IMG/VR virus record: IMGVR_UViG_3300033074_000450
Location: 64,001 to 118,948 of that record
Reading direction: 5' to 3' (one strand)
DNA: 54,948 nucleotides
Source: a virus
Taxonomy: Duplodnaviria > Heunggongvirae > Uroviricota > Caudoviricetes
The notes below the pieces were generated by a model, which had not been told where the DNA came from, searched no databases, and saw only the letters and a program-made list of their open reading frames with translations. A program made the position numbers and the translations under genes. Of the stretch, positions 15,178 through 31,939 are shown piece after piece; positions within the stretch are counted from its first letter, which is position 1; each line of letters begins with the position of its first letter.

Positions 15178-15188
15178 ATGGTATAATT
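15178..15188 (+). promoter_or_regulatory. Putative late promoter
   Basis: ATGGTATAATT. Confidence 0.7.
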
Positions 15189-15219: not shown

Positions 15220-15600
15220 ATGCTTACAGCCAAAGTCCTAAATAGTGCAGCTTCCTTAAACAATTTCAAAGAGATAGCTTCCTTGGAATTTGTTATTGGG
15301 GAAGAGCTTAATTTAGTTTTTCGTCTACACGACCCTCAGTTTAATCTTAGACACGTTCCCCCTGCTACTGCTATTGTAAAAGTTACATTCAATTTGACAG
15401 ACGGTACTACTCTAGAAAAAACTGCTTCTGTTCTTGATGCTGGAGACCGCTCCATGCAAAAGGTTACTTTAACTGAACTAGAGACCGAAACTATCTTAGG
15501 TGGAAACCTATTGTTTCAAGTCGATGTTCTTGGAGATGGTTCTGAAATCATTAAGGGTGTAATCTCTAACGGTTTGAGCAAAATCATCTTAGATTGTTAA
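15220..15600 (+). CDS. Putative virion protein (Ig-like beta-sandwich)
   Basis: All-beta pattern; SD GAGGAG. Confidence 0.5.
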   Translation: MLTAKVLNSAASLNNFKEIASLEFVIGEELNLVFRLHDPQFNLRHVPPATAIVKVTFNLTDGTTLEKTASVLDAGDRSMQKVTLTELETETILGGNLLFQVDVLGDGSEIIKGVISNGLSKIILDC

Positions 15601-15609
15601 GGAGTCACT

Positions 15610-16446
15610 ATGTCTAAAGTAAAAGGCTCCAAAGAGGGAATCAGACAATCCAATAGACTCACTAAACGTGTGGGTCCACTTATCACCGTAGATGAGTTGA
15701 AATCACATTACTTGTTTGGTATAGTAATTGACGATGACAATGGGAACGAGCTTTCTCCAGAAGCCTATCAACAATTTATTGATAATGCGGTGTCTATGTT
15801 AGAGCACACTCTGGATATTTACATCACTCCTGAGACTATCATAGAAGACAAAGACTACCGAATCAATGATTATGCTGATTGGGGATATCTGTATCTAAAT
15901 AACTATCCTGTTGCGTCTATTGACAAGATTGAGATGGTTTACTTCAGAGATGCTGACGGAAATCCAGAAACTATTCAGGAAATCCCAACCAACTGGATGA
16001 GGCTTCAGAACCATGATGGTATTGTTCGTTTAGTCCCAAATGCTCGATTCCCAGCAAACCTACAAATTGACCAATCTGGAAACTATTTTCCAGAGGTTCT
16101 ACGTTCAAACATGGTTCCACATTTATGGAGATTGACTTATACTGCTGGTTTTGAAGATGGTAAGATTCCCGATATTGTGAATCAAGCTATTGGACTTCTT
16201 GCAGCGATTCAAGCCCTGATTGTAGGAGGTAACTTAGTTTTGGGAGCAGGTATCGCTTCTCAATCTATTAGTTTAGATGGTTTGAGTCAGAGTATTCAAA
16301 CTACGGCTTCTGCTGAAAATAGTACTTACTCTGCAACAATTAAAGAATACCAAACCTTACTTTTTGGTAAGAATGCTCAAGACCGTAGCGGTTTAATCGC
16401 AGTTTTGAAAGATTACTACAAAGGTGAGGGTATTGGAATAATTTAA
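15610..16446 (+). CDS. Head-tail adaptor / head completion protein
   Basis: ELKSHYLFG...NAVSMLEHTLD...YPVASIDKI...YTAGF...IPDIVNQAI...SQSISLDGLSQS connector pattern. Confidence 0.75.
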   Translation: MSKVKGSKEGIRQSNRLTKRVGPLITVDELKSHYLFGIVIDDDNGNELSPEAYQQFIDNAVSMLEHTLDIYITPETIIEDKDYRINDYADWGYLYLNNYPVASIDKIEMVYFRDADGNPETIQEIPTNWMRLQNHDGIVRLVPNARFPANLQIDQSGNYFPEVLRSNMVPHLWRLTYTAGFEDGKIPDIVNQAIGLLAAIQALIVGGNLVLGAGIASQSISLDGLSQSIQTTASAENSTYSATIKEYQTLLFGKNAQDRSGLIAVLKDYYKGEGIGII

Positions 16447-16476: not shown

Positions 16477-19400
16477 ATGGATAAATATACAAAAGCGTTA
16501 GACATTCTTAAAAGTGTAGGAGAAGGAAGTCGAGGAGGCCATGTGATTGGTCATACTCGCTCTGGACAACCTATCTATGATTCAGCTAATCACGAAACTC
16601 ATCAGCAGTTTAAAGCTCAAGACCATAAAGATGCTATGAATCATCATTATGATATTTGGTCTAAAACACAAGAAAAAATCAACTCCATCAGACAACAAAA
16701 TCCTAATTGGAACCCTCCCAAGGAAATACATGATTTTCTAAAACATCATTATACTCAAATGCAGATGCATCAAAGTGTCATGGGTAGAAAAATGGATAGG
16801 GAAGCAGCTCAAGCTAAAAACCTTAAAAAATCTGACGAAATCACTCCTTTCTATTCAGCGGTAGTTGTAGTTGATGCCAAAAAGAAGAATTTCCTTTTAG
16901 GTAAACGGAAGAATGATGGGCTTTGGACATCTCCTGCTGGAGGAGCCAAAGTTGGAGAACTTCCCAAGAAAACGGCTATTCGTGAAGCTTTTGAAGAGGC
17001 TGGATTTGTTCTAGAAGAAAGTCAACTGCAAGAACTCCCTATGGGATACGCAGATAATTATAAGCCAGTGCATTGCTATGTGGCAATCTTATCCCCAGAG
17101 CAAATGAAGAAAATCTCCACAATAAATGACCCTGATGAAGAAGTCAAAGAATGGAAATGGCTTCCTATTGATGAGAAGATGCCAAATACTGACGAGAATC
17201 GTGCTGCCACTCTCTTGAACGCTAAGATGCATCTGGCAGGAATTGTAATGAAATCCTACCATAATCTAGATGATATGGAAGGCATGACTTCTATCAATAC
17301 TCATGAATTTAAAGAAGAGAATGAAGAGAGTCATCCAATTAAAGAAAGTATCGAAAGACTCATGGAAGGCTATGAATCTGGAGATGAGCCTCGAAGACTT
17401 ATGCTTGACGGGGAGCATACTCTACACTTAGTCCGAGTCGATGAGGGTATTTTTTCTGGTTTCGTTAAAAAGAAATCAGAAGATGGTATGGAAGAGACCG
17501 CTGTTACTTTGGACAAGATGCCTATTCCTAGCATCGTACAATATTTAAAAGCTAAAGAGATTCTTAAAGACGCTCCTAAACAGGTTGAGCTTAAACAAGA
17601 CGATTCTGCTCTAAGAGAAGTAATCGAGCGTTTAGCTGGTATGACTGTTTATGGAGACGTAAATATCACTATCAAAAAAGCCAAGGCTCTACCAATCGGA
17701 ACAATCCGTCAATGGGGAGTTTACAAGTACGTTAAACACGCAGATGGCTGGGTAGTTGTGGGAGGAGAGCATCATGGTAAGCTTATGGGTAATTTTAAGT
17801 CTGAGCCTAGTCACGCTGATTTTGCTAGACATCATGAGGGTTCGACTCCTAAACAAGATGAGCCTGAAACAAAGCCAGAAGCTCCAAAGGTGGATGAGGG
17901 GACTTCCTCAAAAGAAAAGCCTAAAGCAGAAGCTAAACCAAAGGCTGAGAGTCCTAAAGAAGAGTCTAAGCCTAAAAGCCCTGAAGAAGAAATTAAACAA
18001 GCTAAAGAGCTTGGGAAGAAAGCTTTTGAAGAAGGTAAAGGACCTGCTCCCTCACAAAGTTCGGAGCTAATGAAACTTTTTAAAGAGAGAACTGACCAAT
18101 CTCATGAACATGGATTAGCTCTTATGGATGCTTATGCTAAAGAATGGCATAGGGCTAATCTAGCTGCTCCTGTTCCAGAACCAGAAGCCAAGCCCAAAGA
18201 AGAGCCTAAGAAGAAGGATGAGAAGCCAGTACAAGAACCTGGAGCACCTGAAGCAGAGACCGAAGATGATGTTGATGACCAACCCGAAGTAGATGCTAAA
18301 TTTGGTCAAGTAGATAATCCTAGAGAAGAAGCTGAAGCTGAACAGGCAGAGCTTGAATCTGAAGGTGAGTATGCTAATGCTCGTAAATCAAAGATTTCAA
18401 ATATAGGAGAAGACGTAGAGGGTTCGGCTCGACATAAAGCTATGGACTGGAAAGGTCTTGCACAAGCTGAGAAAGATGGTAATGCAGAAGCTTTTATTAA
18501 ACGTGACCAATTATTGAAGATGGAACCAACCAAATTCGATGAGATGGTAACTCCTCAGAATTATATGGTCGCTCTTCAAATGCAATCTGCTTTGGAGCGT
18601 TTTCCTCCAGCTCCTAAACACTCTTGGTTAACTGGAGGCTGGGACTCTAAACCAGACGAAGAACTTCGCTATGCTGAAGTAATGACTCCTGCTGGAAGTA
18701 CTAGAAAAATACATCCATCTGAATTTGAACGTCTTGAGAGAGAAGGAAATCTTCCTGGAGAAGTCGTTAAAAAGGTAACTGTTGGAGATATCAAAAAACA
18801 AATCCGAAGTGATTATCTTGATGCCTTCAATAAGGTTAAAGCTGCTGCCACAGAAATCGTTAAGACCAAAGGTACAGCAGATATCGTGGAAAACATGAAG
18901 GCTCTTCAAACTGAGGTTCAGAAAATCATAAAAGAACGCAGAGAAAAAGACCGCTATGACGAGATGGCTAACAACATGATTAACTATCTCAATAAGACTG
19001 TTTCTCCATCACTACGCAAACGTAATAATACTGTAATGAATGACTTGAATGAGTTTGCTGAGATGGCAGCAAAATATCATCAAACCGATGCTGCTGGACT
19101 TTTAGGCAATAAAGAAGTAGCTGAACAAGCAAAGCAAGTAATTAAAGGAAAACCAGCATCCAAGATTTTTGGAGTTGAAAAAGAAGGTAAGAAACGCTTC
19201 ACAGCAGCAGACCTTTATGTGGACCATGCAGACCGTCAAGGACCTGATTCTGGTTTAAATACGGTTACAGAACAAGCTGATTTCTTAAGCAAAAAAGCTA
19301 AAATGAGAGCTGTTCAATGGGGTAACTCTGTTACGGATGAAGAGCGTGAACATCATTTAAAACATGCTGCCAACGCTTTTAAAGACCTTACTGACATTCT

Positions 19401-19998
19401 AGGACTCCCAGAAGAAATGGGTTCATTCAATGGACGCTTGGCTCTTGCAATCGGAGCTAGGGGTAAAGGTACAGCCTTAGCACACTATGAGCCAGATAGT
19501 AAAACAATCAACCTCACTCGTAAAAAAGGAGTTGGTTCTCTTGCTCACGAATGGGGACACATGCTAGATAACGTGTTAGGAGAAATCCACACTGGTTCTG
19601 GCAGAAATTATGTTTCCGAAGGCTCCGCTTATGGAAACAAAGATATCCCAGTTTATAAAGAAATGAAGGAGTTTCAGTATTCTGAAACAATGTCCCAGTT
19701 CCGAGATAAGGTAAGAGATGCTATTCGTGAAGAGCAAAAGAAGGGCAATTCTGTAGATTCTGATTACTGGATGTCCCGAAAAGAAGTTTGGGCTCGTTGT
19801 TTTGAAAAGTATGTTTCCCATAAGCTCGAAAAGTCTGGCAGAAAGAACACTTACCTATCTGGAGTTAAGGACCATGCTTTTTGGCCTAACGACAAAGAGA
19901 TTGAAGCTATGGCTCCATATTTTGATAAAATTATAGAAGCTGCTAAATCGAATGGTGACATCAAGAAGGCTTTAGACCTTCTAGGAATAACCCTTTAA
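16477..19998 (+). CDS. Large polyvalent protein: Nudix hydrolase plus C-terminal LPD1-like zincin domain
   Basis: Perfect Nudix box GGAKVGELPKKTAIREAFEEAGF (~16939-17007); VQWGNS...LALAIGARG...AHYEP...SLAHEWGHMLD...EVWARCFE (LPD1-like). Confidence 0.85.
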   Translation: MDKYTKALDILKSVGEGSRGGHVIGHTRSGQPIYDSANHETHQQFKAQDHKDAMNHHYDIWSKTQEKINSIRQQNPNWNPPKEIHDFLKHHYTQMQMHQSVMGRKMDREAAQAKNLKKSDEITPFYSAVVVVDAKKKNFLLGKRKNDGLWTSPAGGAKVGELPKKTAIREAFEEAGFVLEESQLQELPMGYADNYKPVHCYVAILSPEQMKKISTINDPDEEVKEWKWLPIDEKMPNTDENRAATLLNAKMHLAGIVMKSYHNLDDMEGMTSINTHEFKEENEESHPIKESIERLMEGYESGDEPRRLMLDGEHTLHLVRVDEGIFSGFVKKKSEDGMEETAVTLDKMPIPSIVQYLKAKEILKDAPKQVELKQDDSALREVIERLAGMTVYGDVNITIKKAKALPIGTIRQWGVYKYVKHADGWVVVGGEHHGKLMGNFKSEPSHADFARHHEGSTPKQDEPETKPEAPKVDEGTSSKEKPKAEAKPKAESPKEESKPKSPEEEIKQAKELGKKAFEEGKGPAPSQSSELMKLFKERTDQSHEHGLALMDAYAKEWHRANLAAPVPEPEAKPKEEPKKKDEKPVQEPGAPEAETEDDVDDQPEVDAKFGQVDNPREEAEAEQAELESEGEYANARKSKISNIGEDVEGSARHKAMDWKGLAQAEKDGNAEAFIKRDQLLKMEPTKFDEMVTPQNYMVALQMQSALERFPPAPKHSWLTGGWDSKPDEELRYAEVMTPAGSTRKIHPSEFERLEREGNLPGEVVKKVTVGDIKKQIRSDYLDAFNKVKAAATEIVKTKGTADIVENMKALQTEVQKIIKERREKDRYDEMANNMINYLNKTVSPSLRKRNNTVMNDLNEFAEMAAKYHQTDAAGLLGNKEVAEQAKQVIKGKPASKIFGVEKEGKKRFTAADLYVDHADRQGPDSGLNTVTEQADFLSKKAKMRAVQWGNSVTDEEREHHLKHAANAFKDLTDILGLPEEMGSFNGRLALAIGARGKGTALAHYEPDSKTINLTRKKGVGSLAHEWGHMLDNVLGEIHTGSGRNYVSEGSAYGNKDIPVYKEMKEFQYSETMSQFRDKVRDAIREEQKKGNSVDSDYWMSRKEVWARCFEKYVSHKLEKSGRKNTYLSGVKDHAFWPNDKEIEAMAPYFDKIIEAAKSNGDIKKALDLLGITL

Positions 19999-20007
19999 GG
20001 AACTAAC

Positions 20008-20856
20008 ATGAAAAAATTACAATTACTGGAAGAAATGGCAAAAAGTACTCAAGAGTTCAATCTAGCCATCAAGCTTCAAAAATCAGAAGAGTTCCAAAAG
20101 GCTCAAGGTCTTCCCGTAGGAAGCGTTAGATTGTGGCATGGTCAGAAATTCATTAAACAAGGTGATGGACACTGGGTCCCACTTCCTTCTGGTCAACAGG
20201 GACAAGGGCAGCAAAGTCAACCCCAGCAACAACCAGCTCCTCAACAAGAAGCTAAACCACAAGAGCAACAGGCACAAAAACAGGAAGCGAAAAGTGATGA
20301 GCTTGAAAAACAACCTCAAGAAAAATCTATTGAATCTGAACCTTTAGGCCATCTTAAGCCTAAAGAGGGGTTCGGAGGTCATGTAGGATTACATTCAAAA
20401 GACCTTGATGAGAGTTTGAAGAATGGTAAGTATTCCCTTATTTCTGCTGGACGTAATCCAAATAATGCAGGAGATAGGGCTCTTACAGATGACCAGATTA
20501 AAGAGCGTTATAAGCGTTTAGAGCAAGACTTGAAGGACCAGGGATACAAGTATTCTAAAGTCAAGGGTCATTACGGTGGAGAAGAAGATTCCTTTATGGT
20601 CCATCACGCTAAACCAGAACACATGAACGAGCTTGGGATGAAATATAACCAGGATTCAGTCATTCATAGCGACCAAGGCAAACATAAGATGCATTTTACT
20701 ACAGGTGACAATTCAGGGATGCATCATAAAGGTGAGGGTTTCCAAGAGGTCCCAGACGCTAAAGATTACTACAGTGTAATAAATACAACTGATGGGCAGC
20801 AAAAGAAGTTTAGTTTGAACTTTGATTTCGGCAAACACCATAAGGCCGATGAGTAA
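20008..20856 (+). CDS. SAM lyase (T3 SAMase-like) domain fused to a leader module
   Basis: LISAGR...KGHYGGEEDSF...KYNQDSVI...GFQEVP parallels T3 SAMase VSAFR...GCYRE...EEKT...WEQDCVL...SFQEVP (recalled from memory). Confidence 0.7.
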   Translation: MKKLQLLEEMAKSTQEFNLAIKLQKSEEFQKAQGLPVGSVRLWHGQKFIKQGDGHWVPLPSGQQGQGQQSQPQQQPAPQQEAKPQEQQAQKQEAKSDELEKQPQEKSIESEPLGHLKPKEGFGGHVGLHSKDLDESLKNGKYSLISAGRNPNNAGDRALTDDQIKERYKRLEQDLKDQGYKYSKVKGHYGGEEDSFMVHHAKPEHMNELGMKYNQDSVIHSDQGKHKMHFTTGDNSGMHHKGEGFQEVPDAKDYYSVINTTDGQQKKFSLNFDFGKHHKADE

Positions 20857-20866
20857 CAAATACAGT

Positions 20867-20877
20867 ATGGTATAATT
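20867..20877 (+). promoter_or_regulatory. Putative late promoter
   Basis: ATGGTATAATT. Confidence 0.7.
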
Positions 20878-20899: not shown

Positions 20900-22147
20900 A
20901 TGTCTAAAACAAAAGAACAGATTGATGTAGAAATTACAAACTTAGCTGAACAGATGGTTAAGTCTGTAACTGATTCTAAACAACTTCTTTTCGATACCAT
21001 CATGAATCTTGGTCCTGAGAACCTTAAGAAGGCCGTTGCCTCTCTTTCTGATTCTGAGAAGGAAGTCTTGAAATCATGTGTGGCAGACTTGCAAAAAGCT
21101 AAAGAGGTTTCTGCTGAAATCACTCCTAAGAAGACTGAAACTAAAGCTGCTGAAATGAAAACTGAGTCTCAGACTGGTTCTGATGATGAAGATGAAAAGA
21201 AGCTTATGGATGAGAAGAACGCAGAACATCCTCATCAAGGTGGACCTAAAGACAAGCCCGAAGGTTGGGAAGGTCAAGTAATTAAAGCCAAAAAAGAAGA
21301 CGAAGAGCCTGAAGTTGAAATGCCAGCTAAAGAAGCTGTAAAAGAGCACAAGCGTCTAGTTAATGTTTTGGAGTCTGATTCTAAAAAAGATGACAAAGAA
21401 GAAGCTAAAAAACAAAAGAAAGAGCTTAAAGAATATCAATCAGAAATGAAAAAAGCTGATGATAAAGCTGTTGATGCTTTGATTCAGATTGAGGAAGCAG
21501 AACACAATAAAGATATTAACGGTGACGGTAAAATTGCCGAGAAACTTGAAAAGGAAAAGAAAATGAAAAAGTCATTAGAAGAAATCGTTGAGTTGGCTAA
21601 GTCACTCAATATGTCTAAAGAGGAAGTCATTAAGACGATTAAAGATTCTAATGATGACCTTGAACTTGTTAAGGGCAAAATGAAAGAAAAGTTTGCCGAA
21701 CAAGGTATGAAGCTTGCTGAACCCAAAAAAGAAGACGAGGGTTCTCCCGAAGATAAGAAAGAAGATAAAAAGGAAAAGAAGATGGAGAAATCTGTCAACT
21801 GGAACTTTAAGTCCTCTATCGCTGCCAATAGTTTGGGTCGTAATACTCACTGGGATGTGGATTCATACATCGAGAAGTCTGAAGCTGAGAAGCAAGAGAT
21901 TATCAAAAAAGGTGGATATTTCGGAGAAACTCAAGATGAGACTCTTCAAAAGTCTGAGTCTAAAAAAGTTGACATTAACGACCTAATCGAAAAAGGTCAA
22001 GATTATTCTACTGAAGAAATCAAGCGTATTGAAGGTATCCGTGACCACAAGATTGAAGGTAAGGTTGTTAAATCTTTCCACGATGAGGATATCGCTGCTG
22101 CTCTTGGCATGACTAAGGAAGAATATAAAAAGTTAATGGGAGAGTAA
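20900..22147 (+). CDS. Highly charged internal head / scaffold-like protein
   Basis: K/E/D-rich; more than 10 hydrophobic-x-K-[SAG] motifs; DINGDGKI loop. Confidence 0.6.
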   Translation: MSKTKEQIDVEITNLAEQMVKSVTDSKQLLFDTIMNLGPENLKKAVASLSDSEKEVLKSCVADLQKAKEVSAEITPKKTETKAAEMKTESQTGSDDEDEKKLMDEKNAEHPHQGGPKDKPEGWEGQVIKAKKEDEEPEVEMPAKEAVKEHKRLVNVLESDSKKDDKEEAKKQKKELKEYQSEMKKADDKAVDALIQIEEAEHNKDINGDGKIAEKLEKEKKMKKSLEEIVELAKSLNMSKEEVIKTIKDSNDDLELVKGKMKEKFAEQGMKLAEPKKEDEGSPEDKKEDKKEKKMEKSVNWNFKSSIAANSLGRNTHWDVDSYIEKSEAEKQEIIKKGGYFGETQDETLQKSESKKVDINDLIEKGQDYSTEEIKRIEGIRDHKIEGKVVKSFHDEDIAAALGMTKEEYKKLMGE

Positions 22148-25784: not shown

Positions 25785-25985
25785 ATGAAAATTTTACCCG
25801 TACACCTTTTAAAACTCCGTTGGCTCCTTGCTAATACAGACCTCTTGAAGAGGACTGAGCTGGAGCTGGTACAAAATATGCAACAATCTTGGTCAAAAGT
25901 CAATTACTTAGTTTCCTGTCCTGTAACTTTGTCTGCATTGGATAAAGTTTATGAGTCTGTCAAAAAGGAGTACACATGTCAGTAA
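25785..25985 (+). CDS. Hypothetical protein upstream of sigma
   Basis: SD AGGAGG; overlaps the sigma start. Confidence 0.6.
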
Positions 25986-27502
25986 AAGATACGCTCGAAT
26001 CTTACAGTGCAGAATTAGATGTGGTCAAGTCGTATCTTGCCAAACTGAATAGATTGGAACTTCTTACCAAGGACCAAGAAGCTGAGATTTGCAAAGCTAT
26101 CGAAGTTGGAGAAGATAAGATTCTGAAAGTGTGTGTCAGGTCCCCTCTCATTTTGAAACAGATTCTTTCTTACAGAAATATTCTAATAGAGAATCCTTCT
26201 ATGGTAGTTGGCATGGTTAGAAAGCTAGACGAGGAATCCTCTGATGAAGAAATAAATGAAACCTTTAAAAGGATGTTTACCCTTTTTGAGGCTATTGACA
26301 CTTTCCTAGATAAGCCTACAAAAGTTTTGGAAAAGAAGATTGTTAGTGAATTACAGGAACTCACCTTTAATACTAAAACCATCACGGCTTTTCTTCAACC
26401 ATTCAAAGACTTAGTTCAGAAGGCTAAGGATTTGAGAAAGAAGAGTGACCTCAATCTCAAAGAGTTAAGACTCGAAAACCATAAACACTTTGCAAAACTG
26501 TTGATTTCTTTGACAGATAAACTTGAAGGTAATGAGCCTATTTTAAATGAAGAAGCTGTGAGTAATCTAGCCCACTCTCTTGGCTTTTCTGTAAAAGAGA
26601 CAAGAGCCATGATTGAAGCTCAGAAAACTTTGATGCGTGAATTAGCCATAAATTCAGTATTGCTTGAAAAAGACTATAAGAAGCTGGAAACTACTAACTC
26701 AGTTTTATTCAAAGCGGAGCAAACTGCAATCCTAGCCAAAAACAAACTAATTGAGGGAAATCTTCGTTTAGTAGTTTCACGGGCTAAAAAGTTCACTAAC
26801 CGAGGTTTGGAGTTTGAGGATTTGATTCAGGAAGGTAACATTGGGCTAATGAAGGCTGTTGATAAGTTTGAATATCGAAAAGGTTATAAATTCAGTACTT
26901 ATGCAACATGGTGGATTGACCAAGTTCTAGGAAGGTCTATTGCAGACCAATCCAGAATGATTCGTTTACCAGTCCACATGGTTGAGACCGTCAACGCTGT
27001 TAACAAAGCTAGAGCCCGATTGATTCAGGTTCTAGGCAAGGAACCATCTGTGGAAGACCTAATCAAAGCTACTAAGCTTGAGGAAGATAAAGTACGAAAA
27101 GCTCTCTCTATTGCAAAAGACCCAATTAGCTTTGAGACGGAGGTTTCTGGAGACCAAGATTCCCCAGAAGGTTCAACTCTCGAAGATTTTATCGCAGACA
27201 CTTCCGAGACCAGTGCCTACAAGAATGTGGTTAGACAAGCCCTGATGGAGGGTATTAGAAAGCTCTTGTCAAGACTTCCTCCTAGAGATGAGAAGATTAT
27301 TAGGCTTCGTTTTGGTATTGGGGAGCCTTTGAACGAAGATTATACTCTAGAAGAGATTGGAAATAAGTTTCCAAATACTAAAACTGGAGAGCCTTTGACC
27401 AGAGAACGTATTCGACAAATTGAAGAAAAATGTAAGGCCAAACTCAAGAAAATGAGCAAGGGTGAGATTTTCAAGCTCTTGTTCCTTTCAGAAGATTTGT
27501 AA
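25976..27502 (+). CDS. rpoD: Phage-encoded RpoD-like group 1 sigma70 factor lacking region 1.1
   Basis: Region 1.2 DVVKSYL..LLTKDQE; non-conserved region; [49 protein letters not shown]; IRLPVHMVE; TLEEIG...TRERIRQIE. Confidence 0.97.
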
Positions 27503-29566: not shown

Positions 29567-31423
29567 ATGGGAATCAAAAAATCTTTCGCTGGAGCATCAA
29601 TCAGAAAACCTGGAGCATATTCTAGGTCTAAAGTTGATAATTCGAGTGGAGCACCTCTTGGAACGAATGACACATTATTTTTAATCGGAGAAGCCGATTC
29701 TGGTAGAGCTGGTTCTGTTGAAGGAATCGTAGAATTTACTGCTGAACAAATTGACCGCTTAATCGAAAAGTTCACTTCTGGTCCTGTTGTTGACTGTGCT
29801 CTTGCAGCTACCCGTCCATCCCCAGATTCTACTATCGGTGGAGCTGGTCGTATTTTAGTGTATATCACTAATGCGTTGGCTCAAGCGTCTAGAACTGTAA
29901 ACGAAGCTACCAATACCAACCCTCTTTACTCTGTAAAAGACCGTAAAGGTGGAGTTTCTGGTAATGACCTTTCAATCACTATTGCCAACGGTACTGTTCC
30001 TGCTCGTCAGAAACTTATCACTATCAATCGTTTGAATGATACCGCTGAAGTATTGGGTGAGAATCCTGGTACTGCTGTAATCTCGATTGATTACACTGGA
30101 GATGCTACAACTGCTTCTGCTGTGATTTCTGGAGCTTCTAAAGCTGCCAAAACTCTTGCAATTACCCTTGCTGGAGACCAAACAGACGGTTCATTGAACC
30201 AAAGCATTATGCTTGCAAACTATACTTTCAAACAACTTGTGGACTTCATCAATGCTCAAGTAGGTTATGCTGCTGTTCTTTTGGATTCTTCTAAAGCTGC
30301 TTTGAAAGCTAATGAGCTTGACTCAATCGGTGCTACTAGCATTCTTTCAGTTACTAGCTTGTATCGTCTTCAAGAAGAAATTCTTGAACTCATCAATGAA
30401 TCTGACCGTGTAGAGGCTTCTTTGGCCGCTACTCCTGTTGTAGGTCTGCCTGTCAACTTGACTAACTCCTTCCTTTCGGGTGGAGCTAAAGGTGCATCTA
30501 CTAACTCTAGCTTCTCAACTGGACTCTCTAAGTCACTTGCACGAGACTACTCTGTAGCTCTTCCTTGTATCTCTAGAGACGCTTCTGCTGATATCGCTGA
30601 CGGCATGACTGATGCAGGTTCTACTTATACTATCGCTGCTGTTCAAGCCGCTCTGGAAACTCACCTTGTTCTTCGTGGTTCTGTTAAGAATCGTAAAGAA
30701 GCTCAAGGCCACACTGGTTTCCGTGATGCTCAGAAAGCTGACTGTTTTGCTCAAGCTGCTAACATCGGTTCTGAGTTGGTTCAGGTTTCAATCCAGGACG
30801 TTTTAGTTCTTGATGTGAACGGTGACTTGGCTTGGAAACATCCTCATGTTCACGCTGCCCTTTGTGCAGGTATCCGATTGGGTACTGAAGTCGGTGAGCC
30901 TTTGACTCACAAGTTCCTAAACGTAAACGGAGTTGGTCACGTTGTAGACCCTCTGACTGGTTTGGAAACTGGAGACTTTAACGAGAGTCTGGATGTTGAT
31001 GATGCAATCGACGCTGGAGTTACCTTCTCTGAAAAAGCTCAGGGTGGACACCGAATCGTTGTGGATAACACAACTTATGGAGTTGACCAAAGCTTCGTAT
31101 TCAACAGGGGTTCTGTTGTAGAAGCTGCTCAGTTTACTGCTAAGACTCTTCGTGAGACTGCTGAATTGGTTTTCGTTGGTAAGAAAGTTTCTAACGGAGC
31201 TGCTTCTTCCATCAAGTCGGTTCTTCGCAATAAACTTGAAGAGTTGAACAGAGCTAACATCATCACCGCTTCTGACGATGCTCCTCAAGGTTTCGTAGAA
31301 GAGACTTTCGTAGTTACCGTAACTGGAAATACTGCTGAAGTTCAAGTTGAAGTTAAACCTGTTCAAGGATTGGACTTTGTATTCATTACTTTCACTTTGG
31401 GAGATATTAAGCAATCAGCTTAA
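29567..31423 (+). CDS. Contractile tail sheath protein
   Basis: IRKPGAYSRS N-terminus; LIGEADSG; IVVDNTTY; VEVKPVQGLDFVFITF C-terminus. Confidence 0.92.
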   Translation: MGIKKSFAGASIRKPGAYSRSKVDNSSGAPLGTNDTLFLIGEADSGRAGSVEGIVEFTAEQIDRLIEKFTSGPVVDCALAATRPSPDSTIGGAGRILVYITNALAQASRTVNEATNTNPLYSVKDRKGGVSGNDLSITIANGTVPARQKLITINRLNDTAEVLGENPGTAVISIDYTGDATTASAVISGASKAAKTLAITLAGDQTDGSLNQSIMLANYTFKQLVDFINAQVGYAAVLLDSSKAALKANELDSIGATSILSVTSLYRLQEEILELINESDRVEASLAATPVVGLPVNLTNSFLSGGAKGASTNSSFSTGLSKSLARDYSVALPCISRDASADIADGMTDAGSTYTIAAVQAALETHLVLRGSVKNRKEAQGHTGFRDAQKADCFAQAANIGSELVQVSIQDVLVLDVNGDLAWKHPHVHAALCAGIRLGTEVGEPLTHKFLNVNGVGHVVDPLTGLETGDFNESLDVDDAIDAGVTFSEKAQGGHRIVVDNTTYGVDQSFVFNRGSVVEAAQFTAKTLRETAELVFVGKKVSNGAASSIKSVLRNKLEELNRANIITASDDAPQGFVEETFVVTVTGNTAEVQVEVKPVQGLDFVFITFTLGDIKQSA

Positions 31424-31432
31424 TAAAAACTA

Positions 31433-31939
31433 ATGAGTAAAGTAATTGACTGGAGCAAAACTTTTAAGCCTGTAATTGGAGACCTGAAGAGGGGAGTAAA
31501 TTCCACTAATACTTCAGGTTCCATGAAAGAGTCTTTTCAAAAGAGCTATGCCCAGTTACAAGAGCAAGAGAAAGCTGAAGCGACTTTGAGAAAAGCTCTT
31601 CCAGTTATGAAGGGAATCCTCTTGCAACGTATGACAGAAAAAAGGCCGTTAAAGGTTATGAGACCCCTTCCTTACACTACAGAAACTCTGGGTGGAGATG
31701 AGGAAGATGATGGATTTTATAGCAATATGGCTAAAGGTGAGAACGCTTCTTTTAAGTCGATTACGAAAGTAATCCCTCCTGGTACTGAACTCACGTTCAT
31801 TACTTTAGAAAAGTCGATGAACCAGTTGTGGTTTAAGACTGATAAGGGTGAAGAAATCGGAATTTACTTAGATGAACAAAACAGGTTACTTACTCAAACA
31901 GATATTTATGAAGTAGTAGCCAAAGCTATGAAAGAATAA
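31433..31939 (+). CDS. Hypothetical protein with K|S/A motifs between sheath and tube
   Basis: FQKS, LRKA, LEKS, VAKA motifs. Confidence 0.55.
   Translation: MSKVIDWSKTFKPVIGDLKRGVNSTNTSGSMKESFQKSYAQLQEQEKAEATLRKALPVMKGILLQRMTEKRPLKVMRPLPYTTETLGGDEEDDGFYSNMAKGENASFKSITKVIPPGTELTFITLEKSMNQLWFKTDKGEEIGIYLDEQNRLLTQTDIYEVVAKAMKE

Follow-up and report, generated by a model that had tools for sequence, protein, structure and literature searches.

Results

A polyvalent gene in a late transcription unit

We analyzed a gene at positions 16477-19998 (+ strand) of a 54,948-nt stretch of DNA (the window; positions refer to it unless stated otherwise), which forms the last 55 kb of the 118,948-bp phage record IMGVR_UViG_3300033074_000450, complete by CheckV. 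The host phage of the gene is an uncultured myovirus of ~119 kb, with a tail sheath gene at 29567-31423 and baseplate genes. The open reading frame (ORF) has no internal stop and encodes a precursor of 1173 amino acids (aa) and 132 kDa that carries the sole Nudix domain and the sole LPD1 domain of the genome. The product is almost certainly a polyvalent protein with a Nudix domain and an LPD1-containing zincin, and conserved hydrophobic-x-K-[S/A/G] sites (Phi-x-K below) at the borders of its modules suggest that it is a cargo polyprotein cut by the head protease. It agrees with the description of polyvalent proteins by Iyer et al. (2017; PMC5512222), in which one chain joins two or more unrelated effector domains and is encoded with phage packaging or late genes: a Nudix domain, a zincin/LPD1, and at least four unnamed modules are combined here, in a unit that adjoins virion genes.

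The gene belongs to a unit of ORFs at 15220-15600, 15610-16446, 16477-19998, and 20008-20856, which is headed by an extended -10 late promoter, TGGTATAAT, at 15179-15187 (+). The sequence TGRTATAAT occurs 10 times, exclusively on the + strand, against 1.06 expected, and 10 copies were never reached in shuffles. The copies (8636, 10754, 11582, 14712, 15179, 20868, 27524, 33169, 39958, and 46887) lie upstream of structural genes and are read as a predicted late promoter class without a -35 element; the copy at 20868 heads the transcription unit after that of the polyvalent gene. By this placement, the polyvalent gene is a predicted member of a late, virion-gene transcription unit. The head module, comprising terminase, portal, a head-maturation protease of family phrog_1028, a scaffold-like protein, and a 469-aa capsid protein, lies upstream of the window. 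Nine nucleotides (nt) downstream of the polyvalent gene is a second cargo gene (20008-20856, +), whose 282-aa product has a T3-type S-adenosylmethionine (SAM) lyase domain (PF23780/DUF3293). The N-terminal leader of the SAM-lyase protein is MKKLQLLEEMAK, followed by S, and the protein opens with an SH3-like module of the kind found in the polyvalent protein.

Module layout of the polyvalent protein

The module mosaic was derived by BLAST against 56 database homologues, in which the modules appear in varying order and combination (labels such as P0003 and P0036 denote these database proteins, and labels such as L050 and L062 denote IMG/VR loci). AlphaFold (AF2) models were obtained for aa 1-470 and aa 613-1173, with predicted local distance difference test (pLDDT) values of 72 and 84, respectively. 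The first model consists of confident domains separated or flanked by low-pLDDT stretches at aa 11-18, 115-121, 257-283, 366-379, 386-403, and 442-470.

The protein begins with a leader of 12 residues (MDKYTKALDILK; aa 1-12, nt 16477-16512), modeled as an amphipathic helix at aa 2-14, which ends in a Phi-x-K/S site where pLDDT falls (aa 11-18). It is followed by module A (aa 13-118, nt 16513-16830), an unnamed repeat module made of the GEGSRGGHVIGHTRSGQPIY beta-hairpin and a His-rich helical hairpin and ending at a conserved K118/S. The Nudix hydrolase domain (PF00293; aa 119-259, nt 16831-17253) contains the Nudix box at nt 16939-17007 and ends at a conserved K259/S. Module C1 (aa 260-401, nt 17254-17679) is a small alpha/beta domain with AF2 strands at aa 306-348 that ends at a conserved K401/A; it accompanies the Nudix domain in relatives and has no family match. 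An SH3-like small beta module follows (KALPIGTIRQWGVYKYVKHADGW; aa 402-445, nt 17680-17811), with four short strands at aa 410-439, and then a linker that is low-complexity and E/K/P/A-rich by composition (aa 446-612, nt 17812-18312), within which a small helical domain (aa 505-567, nt 17989-18177) matches phrog_19203. The C-terminal half comprises the helical domain D (aa 613-927, nt 18313-19257), which always travels with the zincin, a gluzincin metallopeptidase domain (aa ~928-1164, nt 19258-19968) that ends at a conserved K1164/A, and a C-terminal tail (ALDLLGITL; aa 1165-1173, nt 19969-19995). Pfam searches at E ≤ 10 gave nothing credible for modules A, C1, the SH3-like module, the small helical domain, or D, and module A had no usable match in the ESM Atlas.

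Domain D and the HEWGH/LPD1 region (aa 613-1173, ~550 residues) recur as one unit in 252 IMG/VR stretches, which came from an alignment-based scan with aa 613-1173; a single-sequence scan of IMG/VR with the same residues found no close relative. Among 50,697 phage records, megablast with the gene gave no match. With tblastn, the zincin/LPD1 part alone was matched, at 34-39% identity, by Shiga toxin (Stx) phages and a single Bacillus phage. Structure comparison of domain D returned only non-specific helical bundles (Z 5-6). At the start of this domain, aa 616-654 (nt 18322-18438) carry the pattern AR.S...N.GED..GSARHK, which is strongly conserved yet modeled at low confidence, with R616, G644, D646, R652, and H653 invariant in 25 sequences. 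In the zincin unit, this segment may act as a pro-segment or as a peptide that binds a partner.

The Nudix domain is intact and of a generic fold

The first-pass annotation, made from the letters of the DNA, had described an intact Nudix box and had suggested that the enzyme may destroy a defense signal or an NAD-derived molecule. The box (GGAKVGELPKKTAIREAFEEAGF, aa 155-177) fits GX5EX7REUXEEXGU and is indeed complete; its residues G155, G160, E161, R169, E170, E173, and E174 do not vary across an alignment of 21 sequences, and Pfam NUDIX matches aa 128-244 with E 2.4e-15 (57.1 bits against a cut-off of 21.1). Foldseek places the model among Nudix folds (E 4e-9 to 1e-7), including CDP-Chase, RppH, NUDT15, GDP-mannose hydrolase (GDPMH), and NudC, and further fold and profile matches include Dcp2 and YmfB, a generic small MutT type.

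These matches point to no particular substrate. Nudix enzymes of the NADH-pyrophosphatase (NudC) type carry a SQPWPFPxS array downstream of the Nudix box. The NADH signature (SQPWPFP) and the CoA signature (LLTxR[SA]) are both absent from the polyvalent protein, and lacking SQPWPFP, the domain is judged not to be of the NudC type. The modeled generic fold lends no particular support to an NAD or alarmone target, and hydrolysis of RNA 5' ends or caps, NTPs, Ap4A or an alarmone, or ADP-ribose all stand as candidate activities. A literature search on virion Nudix enzymes with anti-defense functions found nothing relevant. A counter-defense role for the Nudix domain is at best a tentative proposal, and we hold it to be doubtful.

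LPD1 is predicted to be the C-terminal part of a gluzincin domain

The motif HEWGH, which had been placed at about 19546-19560, lies exactly there (aa 1024-1028) and is the sole HExxH of the protein. Pfam LPD1 (PF18796) matches aa 1094-1158 (nt 19756-19950) with E 1.5e-13 (51 bits against a cut-off of 27) over model positions 6-76 of 78, so the segment-by-segment Pfam search bears out the LPD1 domain that the first-pass annotation had suspected. Its term "LPD1-like zincin" is apt if HEWGH and LPD1 are one domain, as the fold supports, and not if it refers to LPD1 by itself, since HEWGH lies 70 residues upstream of the LPD1 match. In an alignment of 25 homologues, A-H-E-W-x-H is invariant, as are E1103 and E1110 in the helix S..E.FAR.FE.Y inside the LPD1 stretch, a possible position of the third zinc ligand.

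The AF2 model of aa 613-1173 was compared with 48,161 solved chains by VIA-align. The top four fold matches are all gluzincin endopeptidases and span aa ~917-1157, including the whole LPD1 stretch: anthrax lethal factor (LF; Z 8.9, root-mean-square deviation [rmsd] 5.8, 198 aligned residues), the MtfA-like 3dl1 (Z 8.2, rmsd 4.0, 173 of 210 residues), and the Pro-Pro endopeptidases PPEP-3 (Z 7.0) and PPEP-2 (Z 6.5). All of these Z values are moderate, and Foldseek alone gave weak LF matches (E 8e-3). No metallopeptidase family of Pfam, MPTase-PolyVal (PF18818) included, was listed for aa 928-1173 even at E ≤ 10, and LPD1 was the sole significant match. Because single-sequence and profile searches of PDB sequences returned Nudix enzymes only and no peptidase, the zincin assignment is drawn from fold and motif. 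Because the fold matches cover the whole LPD1 stretch and the invariant E1103 and E1110 lie inside it, the reading of LPD1 as the C-terminal helical part of one LF/MtfA/PPEP-like gluzincin domain (aa ~917-1164), not a separate domain, is well supported by the model. We take the zincin to be a putatively active peptidase. Iyer et al. (2017) listed LPD1 among the domains whose function "remains elusive" and tied the metallopeptidases of polyvalent proteins to the LF-type fold (4dv8) (PMC5512222). If our reading is true, it reassigns a Pfam domain of unknown function to the C-terminal part of an LF-like zinc peptidase.

A different use of this region has been proposed for phi24B gp47, a protein of an Stx phage that was detected in virions (bioRxiv 10.64898/2026.04.10.717836); proteins of its kind match aa 919-1158 at ~34% identity. 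By analogy, the piece made of D and the zincin could form or clear a channel through the periplasm or peptidoglycan, not attack defense proteins, and the wide spread of the module in IMG/VR speaks for this reading. Against this, the phage is a sheathed myovirus, one of its tail proteins weakly resembles a lysin family (phrog_1015, E 1e-6), the nearest folds (LF, MtfA, and PPEP) are protein endopeptidases and not muralytic enzymes, and no transmembrane segment was noted in the sequence. We consider a role in breaching the envelope very unlikely.

Conserved Phi-x-K sites lie at module borders, and the motif is enriched in head proteins

The polyvalent protein contains nine Phi-x-K-[ASG] sites, five of which (K12, K118, K259, K401, and K1164) are conserved in homologues while nearby positions vary. 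All five are at module borders. K12, K118, K259, and K401 coincide with borders defined by BLAST and fall inside the low-pLDDT stretches 11-18, 115-121, 257-283, and 386-403; such stretches make up 22% of the modeled N-terminal region. The sites at K6 (K6/A7, KAL), K358, K890, and K1119 were rejected as functional sites because they are not conserved.

Enrichment was counted with [LIVMFY].K[AS] over the 157 called ORFs of the genome. Enrichment is strongest in three proteins: the scaffold has 11 sites where 1.4 are expected, a 415-aa protein has 12 (2.3 expected), and the prohead protease has 7 (1.6 expected). Ten control motifs, with E, D, or R at the residue before the cut (P1), a reversed motif, shifted spacing, or other classes of the residue after it (P1'), are not enriched in these three proteins. 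The longer form [LIVMFY].K[AS]L occurs 10 times in the head module against 1.3 expected. Scaffold, protease, and the N-terminus of the capsid protein are the classic substrates of prohead proteases. In the capsid protein, the sequence LQK/ALS at aa 28-33 is present in 120 of 120 homologues. The head protease (phrog_1028; L085, 2188-3096; genome 61188-62096) has IVEK/ALGVG just after its catalytic part, which suggests C-terminal autocleavage, and the adjoining scaffold-like protein (L085, 3390-4196; genome 62390-63196) carries its 11 sites within 268 aa. The portal (L001, 7497-9563; genome 51497-53563), with MEK/ALKVEYYK twelve residues from its C-terminus, and a 162-aa head-module protein (L085, 1684-2172), with LVEK/ALDLTD at aa 12-21, may be further substrates of the head protease. 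The 415-aa protein (20900-22147, +), which has no family match and its own late promoter at 20868 (p ≤ 0.001 for its 12 sites), carries the sites at a density like that of the scaffold; it is probably another protein of the scaffold or core type, broken down inside the head. By eye, motifs of the head protease (NWDH... and MGMSIEG...) look HK97/assemblin-like, which makes it a candidate member of the HK97-like family.

As a blind cross-check, ORFs neighboring the zincin module in IMG/VR were ranked by motif excess alone. The top ORFs are phrog_1028 head-maturation proteases (L050, L062, and L073) and phrog_15087 scaffolds (L062 and L051), in phages whose zincin modules have 30-43% identity to that of the polyvalent protein and whose protease is of the same family. 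The motif count of neighbors is 2 times the expected value at loci whose module ends in the K-type motif and 1.5 times at loci whose module does not.

The two ends of the protein probably carry copies of an extended putative cleavage motif

The first-pass annotation had proposed that matching helices at both ends are capsid-targeting signals removed after packaging. The likeness is real: the N-terminus (MDKYTKALDILKS) and the C-terminus (DIKKALDLLGITL) have K-A-L-D-[IL]-L in common, shuffling the residues of the two 20-residue ends produces a common 6-mer at a frequency of only 1.2e-4, and the motif RGGHVIGHTRSGQPIY directly follows K12/S13, as had been stated. A matched pair of tags does not emerge from the homologues. 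The N-terminal KAL is confined to the polyvalent protein and its 86%-identical relative, and others have KLL, QVL, RLR, NLL, ELL, and so on. The C-terminal [LIF]-x-K-[AS]-[LIM] persists in ~21 of 25 homologues, to the same degree where further domains come after an internal zincin module. Because the C-terminal K-A helix is kept at internal positions, it is judged to be the end-piece of the zincin module and not a C-terminal tag. A better reading of the shared KALD[IL]L is that an extended cleavage motif, Phi-x-K/[A/S]-L-[D], occurs twice in the protein; further copies are found in the scaffold (VEK/SLDV), the 162-aa head-module protein (VEK/ALDL), the major capsid protein (LQK/ALSI), and the protease (VEK/ALGV). 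A search of the proteome for a shared amphipathic targeting-helix pattern did no better than shuffles, and we therefore no longer regard the terminal helices as one specific tag in duplicate.

The N-terminal half of the targeting proposal fares better, because the N-terminal helix behaves as a leader common to the family, with a putative protease site at its end. All 13 aligned proteins with this N-terminal domain keep L-x-K-[SAG] at aa 10-13. A leader with Lys at position 12-15 opens 33 of 55 homologues, whereas only 12 of 122 control proteins of the genome have one. The leader opens relatives that start with Nudix, SH3-like, or other unrelated first domains. With its 12-aa leader ending in I-L-K/S, and with the motif enriched in scaffold and protease, the protein is a candidate for cargo of the T4 internal protein (IP)/capsid-targeting sequence (CTS) type.

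A second recurrent C-terminal helix, rich in Leu (D-[KR]-[RK]-I-x-[VIM]-L-x-L-[LIM]-x-K-L-[LIT]), was observed in P0181-P0183, P0021, P0028, and P0042, which have no terminal zincin. This helix could be a true C-terminal signal.

Modules that follow Phi-x-K sites are fused, split, and swapped in relatives

The core of module A, GEGSRGGxVIGHT[RK]SGKP[IV]Y, was found in 1031 cluster representatives at E ≤ 1e-3, mostly in 2-7 tandem copies each, and belongs to no Pfam or PHROG family. In a first sample the Phi-x-K motif precedes 52 of 57 copies, and in an independent sample Phi-x-K-[SAG] lies 10-14 residues upstream of 152 of 162 copies (94%, against a background of 21.5%); the module A proteins examined include P0185-P0345. 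Likewise, 39 of 42 SH3-like copies in relatives follow Phi-x-K-[SAG], against a background of 8%.

The borders are also the points at which genes are joined or separated. In relatives on contigs of 116-121 kb, the same N-terminal half, a shorter HEIGH zincin, an SH3-like module, and the SAM lyase form one chain, and aa 1-282 of the SAM-lyase protein correspond to aa 1035-1316 of P0003 at 83% identity. The boundary between the polyvalent gene and the SAM-lyase gene falls in the linker ...EIRK/AIQQMELADILRK/SENFQK/A... of the fused form, which is rich in Phi-x-K sites. On another contig of ~120 kb, a 308-aa protein consists of the leader, Nudix, and C1 only. Domains swapped in as partners include mCpol (Cas10-palm-like; P0019, aa 422-534), RelA/SpoT (P0041, aa 786-892), flavin mononucleotide (FMN) reductase (P0009, aa 1044-1170), and GNAT, and in P0036 the zincin module is fused to a Mu-type portal (aa 65-436). 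Enzymes of nucleotide signaling are recurrent as cargo in these relatives. If the borders are cut, fused and split genes would yield the same products, which would explain the free shuffling.

These distributions bear on who would cut. The embedded LF-like zincin could itself cut between the modules, acting in cis or in trans and either ahead of ejection or following it, which is the role that Iyer et al. (2017) proposed for the metallopeptidase (MPTase) domains of polyvalent proteins (PMC5512222). Most multi-module relatives examined have a zincin, either of the D + E/LPD1 type or of the shorter HEIGH type (in the SAM-lyase fusions), and the Phi-x-K-A directly after the zincin module in ~21 of 25 aligned homologues extends to distant ones. 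Self-processing loses weight because the motif reaches its highest density in the scaffold and the head protease, canonical substrates of prohead proteases, and because many short proteins with 2-7 copies of module A, each preceded by a site, show no zincin. A clade of the zincin module in GC-rich contigs also lacks the site. We regard self-processing as the main rival to cleavage by the head protease, and as unlikely.

The same data speak to whether the protein enters the head at all. It could be a cytoplasmic late enzyme that serves the producing cell, with Phi-x-K motifs acting as linkers or helix caps and the terminal similarity a by-product of amphipathic helices, which are common; packaging is a predicted step, and the protein's own motif count is not significant. 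This would leave unexplained why the sites are conserved amid varying positions and precede three unrelated module types, and why the ten control motifs fail in the scaffold, the protease, and the 415-aa protein. The gene also lies in a late structural operon, P0036 joins the zincin module to a portal, and phi24B virions contain a protein of this kind. A purely cytoplasmic role is improbable, more so than self-processing.

Discussion

We propose that the polyvalent protein is probably a late-expressed cargo polyprotein with a 12-residue T4-like capsid-targeting leader that is cut by the head protease into separate effectors. Its parts would be ordered as the leader, module A, Nudix, and C1, then the SH3-like module, linker, D, and gluzincin as one piece, and then the 9-residue tail. 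The precursor would enter the prohead by co-assembly, for which the leader would play the part of a T4 capsid-targeting sequence or of the N-terminal signal of phage P1 DarB. A head-maturation protease of the phrog_1028 type would then cut after the Lys of hydrophobic-x-K/[S/A] at K12, K118, K259, K401, and K1164, yielding pieces of ~12, 16, 16, and 86 kDa that would leave the capsid together with the DNA. During the opening minutes of infection, the Nudix enzyme, the zinc endopeptidase, and the SAM lyase of the next gene would then work on host nucleotides, proteins, and SAM, with defense systems as the most likely targets.

The steps of this proposal differ in strength. Residence in the capsid is likely, because a relative is fused to a portal (P0036), phi24B gp47 is in virions, and P1 DarB, which has an N-terminal packaging signal (PMC9024508), sets a precedent. 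Cleavage at the five lysines by the head protease is favored by a narrower margin of belief. Several observations weigh against the proposal. The count of [LIVMFY].K[AS] in the polyvalent protein itself is not enriched (8 against 4.7, p ~0.09), and the motif is not exclusive to head proteins: the likely tail tube (31433-31939, +) has 4 against 0.64 (p 0.0025), and a sigma-70 relative (25976-27502, +) has 8 against 2.3 expected (p 0.004). The excess in these two may be due to chance among 157 proteins, or the sigma factor may be processed or packaged. The family of the head protease was assigned through PHROG only; neither Pfam nor the PDB sequences gave a match. Very diverse phages keep the K-A-[LIM] helix that follows the zincin, which may have just a structural role, and the Nudix fold names no substrate. 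Finally, we infer packaging, cleavage, ejection, and targets from the sequence of an uncultured phage. The argument for cleavage is built on the position and conservation of the sites.

If the proposal is true, a leader followed by hydrophobic-x-K/[S/A] would serve as a rule that predicts head-loaded proteins and their cut positions in a large family of environmental phages, and it would explain why the same effector is fused in one phage and encoded by a separate gene in the next. The injected Nudix and the unnamed repeat module, present in more than 1000 clusters, would become candidates for early counter-defense or packaging. A bolder extension, which we offer as speculative and think rather unlikely, is that in a large group of uncultured phages with a phrog_1028-type protease one Lys code both dismantles the scaffold and frees shuffled injected cargo, and that the two small modules are portable capsid-docking tags. 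The cassette would then consist of the leader, a docking module (GEGSRGGxVIGHTxSGKPIY or PxGTxRxWxGxKYxKHxDGW), and an enzyme, and the two small modules that follow the cut would amount to a general protein-packaging tag system for phage heads.

The individual domains have known counterparts. The Nudix domain resembles small MutT-type enzymes (E. coli RppH, YmfB/NudJ, human NUDT15, and B. cereus CDP-Chase) in its complete box and alpha/beta/alpha fold, and differs from them in being embedded in a virion-gene polyprotein and in missing the NADH and CoA motifs. By its model, the zincin shares with LF (M34), PPEP-2/3 (M34), and 3dl1 (M90) the gluzincin fold, with HExxH on one helix and a conserved Glu on a later helix, over 144-198 aligned residues. 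Its identity to them is only 10-16%, and here a helical domain D of ~300 residues always precedes it.

At the level of the whole protein, the closest systems are the polyvalent proteins, such as P1 DarB and the virion RNA polymerase (vRNAP) gp50 of N4, which also join unrelated effector domains in one late virion-linked chain, with a zincin hub, LPD1, and swapping of partners (PMC5512222). That survey mentions Nudix once, treats LPD1 as a domain of unknown function where we place it as the C-terminal part of the zincin, and credits processing to the metallopeptidase, whereas the site motif described here points to the head protease. In T4, phiKZ, and SPN3US, the sites are of the form (A/S/L/I)-x-E, targeting propeptides measure 10-20 residues, the protease undergoes C-terminal autocleavage, and ejection proteins are processed (PMC5694885). 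Our proposed system would resemble the T4 internal proteins and the phiKZ/SPN3US systems in three ways: a short propeptide (10-20 residues) ends in the protease motif, this motif abounds both in scaffold or core proteins and toward the C-terminus of the protease, and cargo is delivered with the DNA. In the phage studied here, as read from its genome alone, P1 would be Lys and not Glu, the protease would be of family phrog_1028, and the substrate would be a multi-module polyprotein with internal sites at each border where the other systems have individual small proteins. Polyvalent proteins, N-terminal capsid targeting, and processed ejection proteins are thus already known, architectures combining Nudix and LPD1 are already in public databases, and the protein does not represent a new kind of system. 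What is new relative to these systems is the placement of LPD1 within the zincin fold, a site code of the Lys type that is linked with phrog_1028 proteases as well as with module borders, and a pair of unnamed small modules that always start at the proposed cut.

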